Positions 15,009 through 18,908 of a stretch of 44,726 bases of DNA are shown here, in pieces. A model generated the notes under the pieces. It saw nothing but the letters and a program-made list of their open reading frames with translations. It did not search any database and was not told the origin of the DNA. How positions within the stretch are numbered: the stretch's first letter is position 1; each line of letters opens with the position of its first letter. A program made the translations under genes and the position numbers. Location: IMG/VR virus record IMGVR_UViG_2802429225_000004; one strand, given 5' to 3'. Origin of the DNA: a virus. Lineage: Duplodnaviria; Heunggongvirae; Uroviricota; Caudoviricetes.

Positions 15009-15368
15009 ATGCGTATAGAGTTTGTTTTGCCTTACCCACCGACGGTGAACACCTACTGGCGACGTCGTGGCAGCACATATTTTGTATCAAAAGCCGGTGA
15101 GCGTTATCGCCGGGATGTGGCACTTATTGTTCGCCAGCAGCGACTGAAATTAAACCTGTCCGGAAGGCTGGCGATAAAGATTATTGCAGAGCCACCGGAT
15201 AAGCGCCGTCGTGACTTGGACAATATCCTGAAAGCACTACTGGATGCGCTGACGCATGCGGGACTACTCATAGACGACGAGCAGTTTGATGAAATTAATA
15301 TTGTGCGCGGTCTGCCTGTTCCTGGTGGTCGGTTGGGGATAAAAATCACAGAACTGGAGTGCGCATGA
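15009..15368 (+). CDS. rusA: RusA Holliday-junction resolvase
   Basis: 119 aa; conserved RusA pattern DKRRRDLDNILKALLDALTHAGLLIDDEQ...GGRLGIKITE. Confidence 0.8.
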   Translation: MRIEFVLPYPPTVNTYWRRRGSTYFVSKAGERYRRDVALIVRQQRLKLNLSGRLAIKIIAEPPDKRRRDLDNILKALLDALTHAGLLIDDEQFDEINIVRGLPVPGGRLGIKITELECA

Positions 15369-16054
15369 ATAACCAGTATTTACAGTTTGTTCGTGAGCAG
15401 CTCATTATCGCCACCGCCGATTTGAGTGGGGCAACAAAAGGCCAGCTTGAAGCCTGGCTGGAGAATGCCATGTTCGATACAGGGCGTTACAGGCGTAAAA
15501 AAATCCGGTACCGCGATGAAGTGACTGGAAAAATGGTCACGCGGGATAATCCACCAATCCCGGGGAAACAATCGCTGGCAAAGGGGACGTCAATTCCTCT
15601 GGTAAGTCAGGTTGAGTTTTCGACATCATCATGGCGACGGGCAGTTCTGTCTCTTGAAGAGCACCATAAAGCCTGGTTGCTGTGGTGTTACAGCGGCAGC
15701 ATTTGCTGGGAACACCAGATTGCGATAACACAGTGGGTGTGGAATGAATTTAACGCCCAATCCGGTACCAGAAAAATTGCAGGGAAAACGCTGGAGCGCC
15801 TGAAAAAATTAATCTGGCTGGCGGCACAGGATGTGAAGAGTGAGCTGGCTGGGCGTGAAACTTATGAATATCAGGAACTGGCATTACTGGCGGGAGTAAC
15901 AACAAAAAACTGGTCCAAAACATTTACTGGTCACTGGGTTGCAATGAAACACATTTTCCACCGTCTGGATAGTGAGGCTTTATTGTTTGTGATGAGAACA
16001 CGCTCAGAACAAAAGGCGGCATTTTCAAAGCAAAGTGTTGCAAAAGTAGATTAA
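15365..16054 (+). CDS. Late-gene antiterminator Q-like protein
   Basis: Position immediately after rusA and before tR'/tRNAs/lysis; ATG overlaps rusA stop (ATGA); family assignment by synteny. Confidence 0.5.
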   Translation: MNNQYLQFVREQLIIATADLSGATKGQLEAWLENAMFDTGRYRRKKIRYRDEVTGKMVTRDNPPIPGKQSLAKGTSIPLVSQVEFSTSSWRRAVLSLEEHHKAWLLWCYSGSICWEHQIAITQWVWNEFNAQSGTRKIAGKTLERLKKLIWLAAQDVKSELAGRETYEYQELALLAGVTTKNWSKTFTGHWVAMKHIFHRLDSEALLFVMRTRSEQKAAFSKQSVAKVD

Positions 16055-16120
16055 AAGGCATATATTTCGTGCAAATCTGATATTTTGCCGATTTTGTACA
16101 TGATGGCAAAGCAAGCAAAA

Positions 16121-16143
16121 CCCGCTGCCGAGCGGGTTTTTTT
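16121..16143 (+). terminator. Rho-independent terminator (tR'-like) downstream of Q
   Basis: Hairpin CCCGCT-GCCG-AGCGGG followed by T7. Confidence 0.6.
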
Positions 16144-16379
16144 ATGTCCGCAAAATGGTGTGGAAGAAAAAATTAATCAGATTGTAACTGAGATAAAAAA
16201 CAATCGTTAAATATGCATTTAATAATTTCTTTATTTCATAAAAAATAAAAACATATATGTATATTTACAAATCTTGATGTGATTTTCCATTGAAAAGAGA
16301 GCTGGTATTATTAATATCGGTCTCCGGTTCCGAAGGGGATGTAAAGCGCGGTCATTTTTATTTCTCTTGAGGAACCAGT

Positions 16380-16455
<76 letters not shown>

Positions 16456-16458
16456 TAT

Positions 16459-16533
<75 letters not shown>

Positions 16534-16802
16534 TAGTAGTAAGGCGAGATTGTGTTATGCACTGACACATTATATATGTGGGGATGGTTTTTGGCCTCTT
16601 TATCCACGTCCCGTTCTGTAATGAGTGATACCAATTGCAGTCCAGTGCTATTTTTTTACACCATCGGAATGGTGCATCATTGGTAGAGATTTGCAATATC
16701 TCTGGCAGGGTCGGTGATGCATCATCCCGATGTTGTAAACATCGCTAAACGTGACATTGAGATTAATCATATACTAATCAAAATCTGGTAATACATCCTT
16801 AA

Positions 16803-16827
16803 CCGCCGTACCAGGCGGTTTTTTTTA
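16803..16827 (+). terminator. Rho-independent terminator
   Basis: CCGCC-GTACCA-GGCGG hairpin followed by T8. Confidence 0.5.
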
Positions 16828-17203
16828 TTCCTGCATCAAACAAAAAAATACACGAGCATCCTGGAATACTCGTGGGACAAAGTCCTTTAGATAGCAATTT
16901 GCGAGAGGGTGAAAAAATGGCGCGGCTGTCGGATTAAAGCCGCGGGACAAAGTCCATGAAGAATAATAAGTATCAGCCTCCTACAGGAGACGAGTTGATA
17001 TTACTAAGCTTTAAAAATGGTTTAAATCCTCAGATTAACCTTAATTTCAGGTAAGTCTTATTTCATTTCTTCGCGCCGCGCCCGGCGCACATCAAAAACC
17101 ACAGAGCCTTTCAGGGGTGAGCTTACGGGATGGTCAGTGTGACTTTCTCTGTGGGCTGGTCACCCTCCGGGCGCAGGCTCACCCACTAAAAGGAAAAGTC
17201 ACG

Positions 17204-17629
17204 ATGTTTGGTATTTTCAAAAAGAAAACCCGCAAGGCCATTACTGAAGTAAAGAAAATGGAGAACCGCGATGCAGTGGAGGCGACCGTCTGGGGCGCGT
17301 ATTCCATTGCATACGCTGACGGCACCTGTGACGCGAAAGAAATCGCGGTGCTGGAGAAAACCATTGCAGCACTTCCTGCTTTTGCGCCGTTCTCCGGTGA
17401 GATTGCACAAATGAGTGCAAATATCCGCGCCCGTTATGAAGCGTCGCCGCGCTCTGCCAATGCTGAAGCCCTTCGTCAGTTGGCTGACGTGGCAGGAACA
17501 GACGATGCAGTTAATGTGCTGTGCCTGTGTCTGGATATCGCTGACCAGGATGGCATTGGTCCGGATGAAGAAGCACAGCTCAAGAAAATTGCTCAGGCGC
17601 TTCAGCTACCGCTGGAGCAGTACCTGTGA
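17204..17629 (+). CDS. TerB-like (tellurite-resistance TerB fold) small protein; moron between Q and lysis genes
   Basis: ATG with AAAGGAAAAG RBS; about 141 aa with TerB-like paired-helix pattern (AYADGTCDAKEIAVLEK...DIADQDGIGPDEEAQLKKIA). Confidence 0.5.
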   Translation: MFGIFKKKTRKAITEVKKMENRDAVEATVWGAYSIAYADGTCDAKEIAVLEKTIAALPAFAPFSGEIAQMSANIRARYEASPRSANAEALRQLADVAGTDDAVNVLCLCLDIADQDGIGPDEEAQLKKIAQALQLPLEQYL

Positions 17630-17778
17630 AAAGTGCGCGCCTTGTGCTGGCTGCCATCCTGCTGTTTCTGGTAGTGGCGGTGGATTTCACCGGACGGCTG
17701 ATGTCGGTGCTGGCAGATGGTGTGCTGGTGGCGATGGCGCTGGTCGTGCTCCGGCCTTTACTGCATAAATCTGAATAA
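17626..17778 (+). CDS. Small hydrophobic membrane peptide (about 50 aa)
   Basis: GTG overlapping TerB-like stop; VKSARLVLAAILLFLVVAVDF...VLVAMALVVL; below ORF-track cutoff. Confidence 0.3.
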   Translation: MKSARLVLAAILLFLVVAVDFTGRLMSVLADGVLVAMALVVLRPLLHKSE

Positions 17779-17830
17779 CATCACACAAAAGGCATCTGCG
17801 GGTGCCTTTGACGGGGTGTTGTTTTTTTAC

Positions 17831-17852
17831 GGGCCGCTGGTGGCCCTTTTTT
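17831..17852 (+). terminator. Rho-independent terminator upstream of the lysis cassette
   Basis: GGGCC-GCTGGT-GGCCC hairpin followed by T6. Confidence 0.5.
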
Positions 17853-17870
17853 ATTTACAGGAGAAAAAGT

Positions 17871-18263
17871 ATGTCTGAACCCTTATCCGGTTCCGGCACG
17901 GCTGCGGCGCTCGGCGGGGCGACGGTATTCGGGCTGTTTACCGGAACGGATTTCGGGATTGTGTTTGGTGCGTTCGCCGGGGCGTTATTTGTGGCAACGA
18001 TGCCGCAGGCGCTTTCAGCCTGGCGTGTGGCAGCGCATTTTCTGGTGTCGTTCATTATCGGCGTGCTGGGCGCAGAGGTTCTGGCATCCTGGCTGGTAAA
18101 GCATACAGAGTTTGATGGTGCACCTGTTGACGCATTGTGTGCAGTGCTGGTGTCTGTATTGTCGGTAAAAGTGCTGTCCTTTGTGCACAGGCAGGACGTT
18201 ATATCACTGATGTCCTGTCTGCTCTCCCGCCTGAAGAGTGGAGGAGGCGATAATGTTAAGTAA
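17871..18263 (+). CDS. Holin-like membrane protein
   Basis: ATG with AGGAGAAAAAG RBS; multiple Gly/Ala-rich predicted TM segments; first gene of lysis cassette. Confidence 0.55.
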   Translation: MSEPLSGSGTAAALGGATVFGLFTGTDFGIVFGAFAGALFVATMPQALSAWRVAAHFLVSFIIGVLGAEVLASWLVKHTEFDGAPVDALCAVLVSVLSVKVLSFVHRQDVISLMSCLLSRLKSGGGDNVK

Positions 18264-18528
18264 CCTTCCCGGATTGCTGAATGTGGCGTTATGCACGGTT
18301 ATCGTGCTGACGCTCTTTTTTTATCGTCGCCGTGATTCCAGACATAAACCGCTGATGTCATGGCTGGCCTGGCTGCTGATGCTGCTGTATGCCTTTGCGC
18401 CCCTCAGCTATCTGTGCGGTCGCCCGTTAGCGGCGAACTGGCTGGCGGTGGGGCTTAATCTGCTGTTCTGCGTGCTGGTGATTCGTGCACGCGGGAACGT
18501 TTCAAAAATCCTTTCATTTCGGAGGTGA
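18252..18528 (+). CDS. Second small membrane protein (holin/antiholin-like)
   Basis: Overlaps first holin end; 2-3 hydrophobic segments. Confidence 0.45.
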
Positions 18529-18530
18529 GC

Positions 18531-18908
18531 ATGTCGGGTAAATTCAGATTCAGTCGTCGTAGCGAAAAAAATCTGGAGGGCGTCAAACCACAGCTGGTTG
18601 CTGTAGTTCGCCGTGCACTGGAGCTGACGGAAGTTGATTTCGGTATTACGGAAGGTCTGCGCAGTAAGTATCGCCAGAAACAGCTGGTTGCAGAAGGTAA
18701 GAGCCAGACCATGAACAGCCGCCACCTGACCGGTGATGCTGTGGATGTTGTGGCTTATGTTGGCAGCCAGGTGTCATGGGACTGGCCTCTGTACGAGAAA
18801 ATCGCACAGGCATTTAAGCAGGCTGCCGCAGAGCTTGGAACTGCCATCGAATGGGGCGGTGACTGGCGGACGCTTAAAGACGGCCCACATTTTCAATTGA
18901 AGCGATAG
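18531..18908 (+). CDS. Endolysin, peptidase M15 (L-alanyl-D-glutamate/VanY-like) family
   Basis: GGAGG RBS; Zn-binding motif pattern SRHLTGDAVDV ... DGPHFQL (H-x6-D ... H). Confidence 0.7.
   Translation: MSGKFRFSRRSEKNLEGVKPQLVAVVRRALELTEVDFGITEGLRSKYRQKQLVAEGKSQTMNSRHLTGDAVDVVAYVGSQVSWDWPLYEKIAQAFKQAAAELGTAIEWGGDWRTLKDGPHFQLKR

Follow-up and report, generated by a model that had tools for sequence, protein, structure and literature searches.

A tciA-tciB cassette between Q and the lysis genes

We analysed a 44,726-nucleotide (nt) stretch of DNA from a Caudoviricetes virus (IMG/VR record IMGVR_UViG_2802429225_000004), hereafter the window, in which a gene for a 141-amino-acid (aa) TerB-family protein and a short gene for a hydrophobic DUF3927 protein, preceded by a conserved structured leader RNA, lie between the antiterminator gene Q and the lysis genes (Table 1). 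The larger protein is 86% identical to TciA of phage P1 over all 141 residues, and the smaller one is 49% identical to P1 TciB. In the window, a lambdoid prophage carries a copy of the tciA-tciB cassette of the phage P1 type, and we regard the identity and anatomy of the cassette as virtually certain. The two genes overlap by 4 nt in the string cTGTGAaa, where the GTG start of tciB overlaps the TGA stop of tciA. The pair is already catalogued, both as tciA/tciB and as TerB family plus DUF3927 in PHROGs and RefSeq; in E. coli prophages RefSeq gives the order 'TerB family', 'DUF3927', 'putative holin'.

The original prediction, made from the letters of the sequence, did not recognise the pair as one already named. 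It had proposed a TerB-fold protein followed by a GTG-initiated hydrophobic open reading frame (ORF) of about 50 aa overlapping its stop, with terminators on both sides, in the variable slot between Q and lysis. Each of these points is borne out: the fold is recovered by Pfam above threshold, by a profile match and by a structure model with fold search (next section), the small ORF is present exactly and encodes a conserved DUF3927/TciB protein, hairpins with T-runs flank the pair, and Q and tRNA genes lie upstream with holin genes downstream.

Table 1. Genes, RNA elements and signals around tciA-tciB, in window coordinates
Feature	Position	Strand	Evidence or remark
RusA gene	15009-15368		context upstream of Q
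Q antiterminator gene	15359-16054	+	PF06323 at 7.7e-94; PHROG 304; its product carries late transcription past the terminators downstream
pR'-like promoter, short leader and tR'-like terminator	16038-16148	+	consensus scan; promoter 16038-16066, intrinsic terminator 16117-16140 with T-run
tRNA-Thr(UGU) and tRNA-Gly(UCC)	16380-16533	+	ARAGORN; Rfam tRNA
Upstream intrinsic-terminator-like hairpin	16801-16820	+	T-run to 16828; about 380 nt before tciA
Structured 5' leader of tciA, conserved	17063-17203	+	covariance model R1, 174 bits
Leader hairpin H0	17072-17076/17083-17087		loop CGCCC, 17078-17082
Leader pseudoknot PK1	17099-17106/17147-17154		CCACAGAG with CTCTGTGG; in RNA form CCACAGAG/CUCUGUGG
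Leader long-range helix H1	17107-17111/17189-17193		CCTTT with AAAGG (Shine-Dalgarno); in RNA form CCUUU/AAAGG
Leader helix H2	17115-17122/17177-17184		GGGTGAGC with GCTCACCC; in RNA form GGGUGAGC/GCUCACCC; encloses inner hairpins
Leader hairpin H3	17132-17144		
Leader pseudoknot PK2	17078-17082/17169-17173		H0 loop CGCCC with GGGCG
tciA	17204-17629	+	141-aa TerB-family protein; ATG start; PF05099, PHROG 632
tciB	17626-17778	+	50-aa DUF3927 hydrophobic protein; GTG start; PF13064, PHROG 1470
Downstream intrinsic-terminator-like hairpin	17831-17846	+	GGGCCGCTGGTGGCCC; T-run to 17856; precedes holin Shine-Dalgarno
Holin gene (Phage_holin_8)	17871-18263	+	
Holin gene (Phage_holin_3_7)	18253-18528	+	
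M15 endolysin gene	18525-18908	+	

TciA is a TerB-domain protein

TciA matches the Pfam TerB family (PF05099) with 32.4 bits against a cutoff of 24.4, in an alignment that covers residues 11-57 only, and almost all of its close homologues had been assigned to PF05099 in precomputed annotation. PHROG 632 ('tellurite resistance') matches it over its full length (4e-65). A search of the PDB with the single TciA sequence returned only spurious matches to polynucleotide phosphorylase and histones and did not reach the solved TerB structure 2JXU. A profile search, the check proposed earlier for this protein, did recover TerB: a profile of 11 TciA relatives matched 2JXU (2jxu_A) with an E-value of 5.5e-11, query residues 12-136 being aligned with chain residues 18-144. 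The AlphaFold2 model, built with 34 homologues, has six helices (predicted local distance difference test, pLDDT, 87.7; predicted template modelling score, pTM, 0.83) and a disordered segment at residues 1-12 with a basic N-terminus (MFGIFKKKTRK), and the best PDB matches in a fold search with this model were the TerB-like structures 2h5n and 2ou3. TciA is a soluble six-helix TerB-domain protein, and its TerB fold is confirmed.

Among TciA relatives of 35-86% identity, D39, G40, E46 and G117 are invariant and E122 is nearly so, and two DG...E acidic motifs are conserved. In TerB, such paired acidic DG...E motifs are a putative metal or ligand site. The ratio of nonsynonymous to synonymous polymorphism (pN/pS) of tciA is 0.07, and proteins 97-100% identical to those of the window are present in public collections. 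A longer candidate, a 170-aa ORF from GTG 17117, was rejected, as homologous loci carry frame-breaking 1-nt indels there and the stretch is leader rather than coding sequence; other long TciA homologues proved to be N-terminal over-calls or frameshifts. We also note that GenBank PP818812.1, labelled 'Actinobacillus phage vB_Apl-pPE4', shares 94% DNA identity with window 17057-17900, and that its TciA is 99.3% identical to the window protein; this record resembles an E. coli-type lambdoid phage, and its host assignment may be questionable.

TciB is a conserved small hydrophobic protein

TciB matches DUF3927 (PF13064) over residues 4-48 with 52.6 bits (cutoff 25; 4.4e-14) and PHROG 1470 ('TciB-like') at 5e-24. 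These were its only family matches; TciB matched no holin family, the holin matches in the region belonging to the adjacent genes. Its hydropathy profile has two hydrophobic stretches (residues about 6-20 and 25-43) on either side of an invariant VDFTGR, and the conserved aspartates D20 and D31 lie within or next to these stretches, while the ends of the protein vary in sequence yet remain hydrophobic or charged. The AlphaFold2 model is one continuous helix (residues 2-48, pLDDT 92.7). TciB is likely to reside in the membrane, and both a hairpin and a single span are candidate topologies on these predictions.

Among 80 related IMG/VR loci, a DUF3927-like ORF overlaps the tciA stop in 75 (as GTGA in 66 and as TGATG in 9); relaxed criteria recover a coupled ORF of 40-70 codons in 79 of the 80, five of these being truncated or aberrant and set aside. 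When 56 distinct sequences were aligned by codon, the pN/pS of the tciB core (LLFLVV...DGVLVA) was 0.17 for the annotated frame, and the other frames gave 0.57 and 3.5. A dN/dS calculation on ungapped tciB was discarded as misleading owing to indels, and the codon alignment was used instead. Judged by these substitution patterns, tciB is clearly a selected protein-coding gene under purifying selection. Since its start overlaps the tciA stop, the two proteins are probably made together by translational coupling. Searches of phages with TciB by tblastn gave almost no matches, probably owing to the low-complexity filter, and we relied instead on hidden Markov models and direct inspection of ORFs.

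The pair recurs in temperate and virulent phages

At least 80% of window 16900-17900 is present in 146 of 5426 complete E. coli genomes. A TerB gene with a coupled DUF3927 gene was also found in P7, in the lambdoid phages JLK-2012 and Evi (TciA 42-44% identical), in the N4-like Salmonella phages UTK0002 and SP-058, in Pantoea phage LIET2, in Pseudomonas phage ZY21 and in Erwinia/Salmonella jumbo phages. The TerB/DUF3927 junction is overlapping or abutting in P1, P7, JLK-2012, Evi and the N4-like, Pantoea, Pseudomonas and jumbo phages. Strictly virulent carriers of the pair are the N4-like Schitoviridae and the Erwinia/Salmonella jumbo phages. In phage ZY21, the start of the DUF3927 gene (about 986-1174 of the ZY21 stretch compared) appears to lie some 23 codons upstream of the annotated one.

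Other phage TerB genes have other neighbours. In Pseudomonas phages AF and Lana the TerB gene is followed by a different small protein with one transmembrane span, start and stop again overlapping; in AF this is an unannotated 73-aa one-span ORF (1932-2153 of the AF stretch compared) whose GTG overlaps the terB stop. The N4-like Vibrio phage BUCT194 carries the order TerB-TerC-TerB (1-2177 of the BUCT194 stretch compared), followed by an 83-aa non-hydrophobic ORF; the middle gene has a Pfam TerC match and the GenBank label 'TerC/Alx family metal homeostasis membrane protein', which connects the TerB genes of phages with the TerC family of membrane proteins. As a rule, phage TerB proteins are accompanied by a membrane partner.

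Genes for tRNAs adjoin the TerB and DUF3927 genes in unrelated lineages, namely P1/P7 (Asn, Thr, Ile), the lambdoids (Thr-Gly, Met-Arg-Arg or Met-Lys-Thr-Gly), the jumbo phages (Trp, Cys) and ZY21 (Arg); about 36 of 60 loci carry a tRNA cluster, of varying content, upstream of the pair. In the jumbo phages the leader begins right at the end of tRNA-Cys. This proximity may be functional, for instance in RNA processing, or may reflect a shared 'accessory' neighbourhood.

A structured leader RNA precedes tciA

The one possibly new element of the locus is the leader, the 140 nt before the tciA ATG; the gene pair itself adds nothing new. The leader is more conserved than the gene that it precedes: between the window and JLK-2012 it is 83% identical in nt, against 59% for tciA and 42.5% for TciA in aa. 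Its predicted fold (Table 1) comprises helices and hairpins, among them the long-range helix H1, and two pseudoknots. The Shine-Dalgarno sequence, 10 nt ahead of the tciA start, is paired in H1.

A covariance model was built from 36 copies of the leader, and divergent copies carry compensatory changes. In H0, GCGCC/GGCGC becomes ACAUC/GAUGU or GCACU/AGUGC; in PK1, CCACAGAG/CUCUGUGG becomes CCGUAGAG/CUCUACGG; and a position of PK2 is C-G, U-A or A-U. In a test on 30 sequences, in an alignment fitted to the nested helices of the model, 95.8% of cells were paired against at most 54.5% with the partners slid, and 18 pairs showed double changes against 6.8 ± 1.8 in shuffles, none of 500 reaching 18. 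As PK1 and PK2 lie outside the model, the support for these two pairings is independent of the fit. An inner helix that RNAalifold had proposed among its nested pairings was dropped in favour of PK1 after compensatory changes were seen in the jumbo-phage copies.

The leader matched none of the 4227 families of Rfam 15 at E ≤ 1 in the window, nor at E ≤ 0.1 in six variant loci. RefSeq has no annotation at its position in the 12 E. coli records listed, out of 165 leader-carrying genomes, and our literature search found no description of it; the RNAs near TerB genes in the preprint on the Pas small RNA are different ones.

The leader also precedes unrelated accessory genes

The covariance model finds the leader upstream of divergent tciA alleles (136-152 bits) and upstream of terB in the Erwinia/Salmonella jumbo phages (43-59 bits), together with second, divergent copies elsewhere in lambdoid contigs (41-63 bits). 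It finds none in P1, P7 or the N4-like, Pseudomonas, Vibrio and Pantoea phages. A pattern scan of IMG/VR gave at least 120 stretches. Among 80 loci taken from these, the model confirmed 83 copies in 73, with up to two per contig stretch. Seven matches to the pattern alone, with no model match and no downstream ORF, were regarded as chance.

In the examined loci the gene after the leader encodes TciA in 26 copies, a 328-aa tail-tip-domain protein in 20 and a 486-aa GT2-like protein in 12, as well as Ant in 4, Rha in 2, KilA-N in 2-3 and several small proteins with no assigned family. Many copies come directly after an intrinsic terminator. That accessory genes so unlike one another share the leader speaks against a metabolite riboswitch specific to one gene; a general translational gate fits better, or the leader is possibly an element of RNA stability or processing. 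We propose that the tciA leader belongs to a previously undescribed class of double-pseudoknot, Shine-Dalgarno-sequestering leaders, and that it would act in the late transcript as a portable translational gate ahead of potentially harmful accessory genes. The case for this class and role seems to us evenly poised, and we hold no stronger view of its extension, by which lambdoid coliphages and Erwinia/Salmonella jumbo phages would both use the leader, with a ligand, a protein or temperature as the trigger. If confirmed, the leader would count as a new cis-regulatory element of E. coli prophages, one that lends itself easily to experiment, and it could explain the silencing or timing of accessory genes inside the late operon.

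Transcription and mobility of the cassette

A scan for sigma-70-like consensus sites, which a weak, atypical or activator-dependent promoter could escape, found no promoter-like site between 16820 and 17204; the conserved stretch ahead of tciA has instead the behaviour of an RNA structure. The lack of such a site, the flanking terminators and the position of Q upstream together suggest transcription by Q-modified polymerase in the late lytic phase. The tciA-tciB pair is in a Q-dependent late transcription unit with terminators on both sides. In P1 the pair is in the C1-repressed ban operon, likewise a lytic-phase setting, and the P1 tci genes are transcribed 10-20 min into infection by P1vir. 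Expression in the lytic phase combined with translational control is, in our judgement, fairly probable.

Comparison of the 80 loci with the window revealed sharp common borders at about 17061 and about 17733. The unit within these borders consists of 143 nt upstream of tciA, the complete tciA gene and tciB up to about codon 36. The remaining tciB codons, about 14, go with the sequence downstream, and the site at about 17733 (tciB codon ~36) is a recurrent mosaic breakpoint.

Terminator-like sites are frequent in the region, with 11 against 2.9 ± 1.9 in shuffles. We infer the pR'/tR' assignment from location directly after Q. In most related loci an intrinsic terminator precedes the leader; in the window a block at about 16908-17060 stands in its place. 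The 12-nt sequence GGGACAAAGTCC is repeated exactly and in direct orientation at 16874-16885 and 16944-16955, 70 nt apart; it is partly palindromic (GGAC...GTCC), and its second copy abuts the ATG of a 32-aa ORF (16956-17054). In the lysis cassette downstream, two tandem genes of different holin families overlap by 11 nt and are followed by the M15 peptidase endolysin gene. No tciC-like third small ORF follows tciB in the window, where hairpins and the holin Shine-Dalgarno stand instead, and terZ, terA, terC, terD and terE are not among the window neighbours of tciA, which are only Q, the tRNAs, the holins and the endolysin.

A putative role at the inner membrane of the infected cell

Taken as a whole, we consider the following explanation the best, and somewhat probable. 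The pair would be transcribed only when RNA polymerase modified by Q reads through, that is, in lytic growth, and the leader would gate its translation. TciB might then hold or partner TciA on the cytoplasmic side of the inner membrane, and the two would make up a TerB-plus-membrane-protein (TerB/TerC) arrangement in minimal form. Such a pair could act for the phage on the inner membrane of the infected cell, in ion or metal handling, in resistance to membrane insult or in phage competition, and would not be a host-protecting conversion gene. The pair is conserved and start/stop-coupled from temperate to virulent phages, which suggests that a stand-alone TerB module serves lytic development. 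The untested label of 'tellurite/colicin resistance' would thereby be redirected toward the membranes of infected cells. For the part that concerns function, the membrane complex of TciA and TciB, we remain doubtful and offer it tentatively.

Several points weigh against this explanation. By CRISPR interference in P1, tciA, tciB and tciC are all non-essential. The P1 names tciA and tciB rest on homology only, authors discussing the tci genes call their function untested, and our literature search found no experiment on the function of TciA or TciB, including tellurite, colicin and phage resistance. The one-helix model of TciB makes a two-span hairpin no more than a candidate topology. The only TerB-DUF3927 fusion found (P0051), considered as a 'Rosetta stone', was rejected, being a single frameshift-type junction on one contig and of little weight. 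For the leader, the minimum free energy of the nested fold is not significant against shuffles (z = -1.35), and the fit of the alignment to the model limits the covariation test for the nested helices; for transcription, the promoter scan was confined to one type of site.

The alternative that survives best, though we think it unlikely, is that of a lysogenic-conversion or defence moron, in which a pair expressed from the prophage protects the lysogen against membrane stress, tellurite, colicins or superinfection, possibly by abortive infection. Authors have named tciA/tciB as possible morons, the classical ter operon with its TerB gives phage-inhibition, colicin and tellurite phenotypes (PMC6799933, PMC9603915), and TerB domains occur in the Shango and Bunzi defence systems. 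The moron reading of the original prediction holds in part: the site is the classic variable slot between Q and the holin gene S, a terminator follows the cassette and its presence varies between conserved genes; however, the scan for sigma-70-like sites upstream of tciA did not find the promoter of its own that a moron would have. The further suggestion of a stress or abortive-infection-like module fared worse. PADLOC-DB v2 has no family that matches TciA or TciB at E ≤ 1, TerB is the sole ter gene of the locus, and the pair is kept in virulent N4-like and jumbo phages, which never form lysogens; the missing promoter and the lytic-phase, C1-repressed promoter of the P1 pair also speak against it.

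Metal or ion homeostasis is, to our mind, an improbable alternative. In this view the phage would use the pair to adjust cytoplasmic Mn2+ or another cation during replication, with the paired acidic motifs of TciA as the binding site for a divalent metal and TciB as a small conduit or regulator in the membrane. The invariant DG...E motifs, the conserved aspartates D20 and D31 of TciB, the TerB-TerC-TerB order of BUCT194 with its metal-homeostasis label and the description of TerB as a ligand-binding component of Ter systems (PMC7824862) are in keeping with such a role. However, metal binding by the TerB domain is a prediction, a 50-aa peptide is small for a transporter, and no metal-responsive element was recognised in the leader, which also precedes genes with no tie to metals.

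Least probable of all is a lysis-timing accessory or toxin/antidote-like pair, with TciB holin-, antiholin- or Hok-like and TciA its regulator: although this would suit the old label 'inhibition of cell division', the position directly upstream of two holin genes, the short hydrophobic TciB with charged ends, the tight translational coupling and a leader common to genes usually deemed potentially toxic (KilA-N, Rha, Ant), TciB lacks a holin family match, the pair is not beside lysis genes in P1 or in the N4-like, Pantoea, Pseudomonas and jumbo phages, and the cassette is often missing from otherwise similar prophages and is therefore not needed for lysis.

Comparison with known systems

The closest known relatives of the window pair, P1 tciA-tciB(-tciC), P7 terB/upf69.4 and the pairs of D6-like phage-plasmids, resemble it in the DUF3927 core (VDFT...SVLxDG). 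Stop and start overlap in P1 as well, as TGATG there and as GTGA in the window, and in both cases tRNA genes are close to the pair. However, P1 has tciC and the window does not, the P1 pair is controlled by C1 in the ban operon whereas the window pair is in a Q-dependent late operon ahead of holins, and the covariance model detects the structured leader at the window pair but in neither P1 nor P7.

The leader itself is similar to known Shine-Dalgarno-sequestering leaders, namely the pseudoknotted preQ1-II and SAM-II riboswitches and RNA thermometers, in its compact fold and in a closing helix that pairs the Shine-Dalgarno sequence, but, unusually for a metabolite riboswitch, it stands ahead of genes that have no function in common. 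The Shango and Bunzi anti-phage systems contain a TerB domain that is thought to work at the membrane, as we suppose for TciA; in contrast to them, the tci pair has no helicase, ATPase or other effector partner and is encoded by phages, virulent ones included. Finally, TerB of the terZABCDE operon (2JXU) is homologous to TciA over nearly its full length, and both are all-helical with paired acidic motifs, whereas TciA is stand-alone and distant in sequence, and its partner is a 50-aa peptide instead of TerC.

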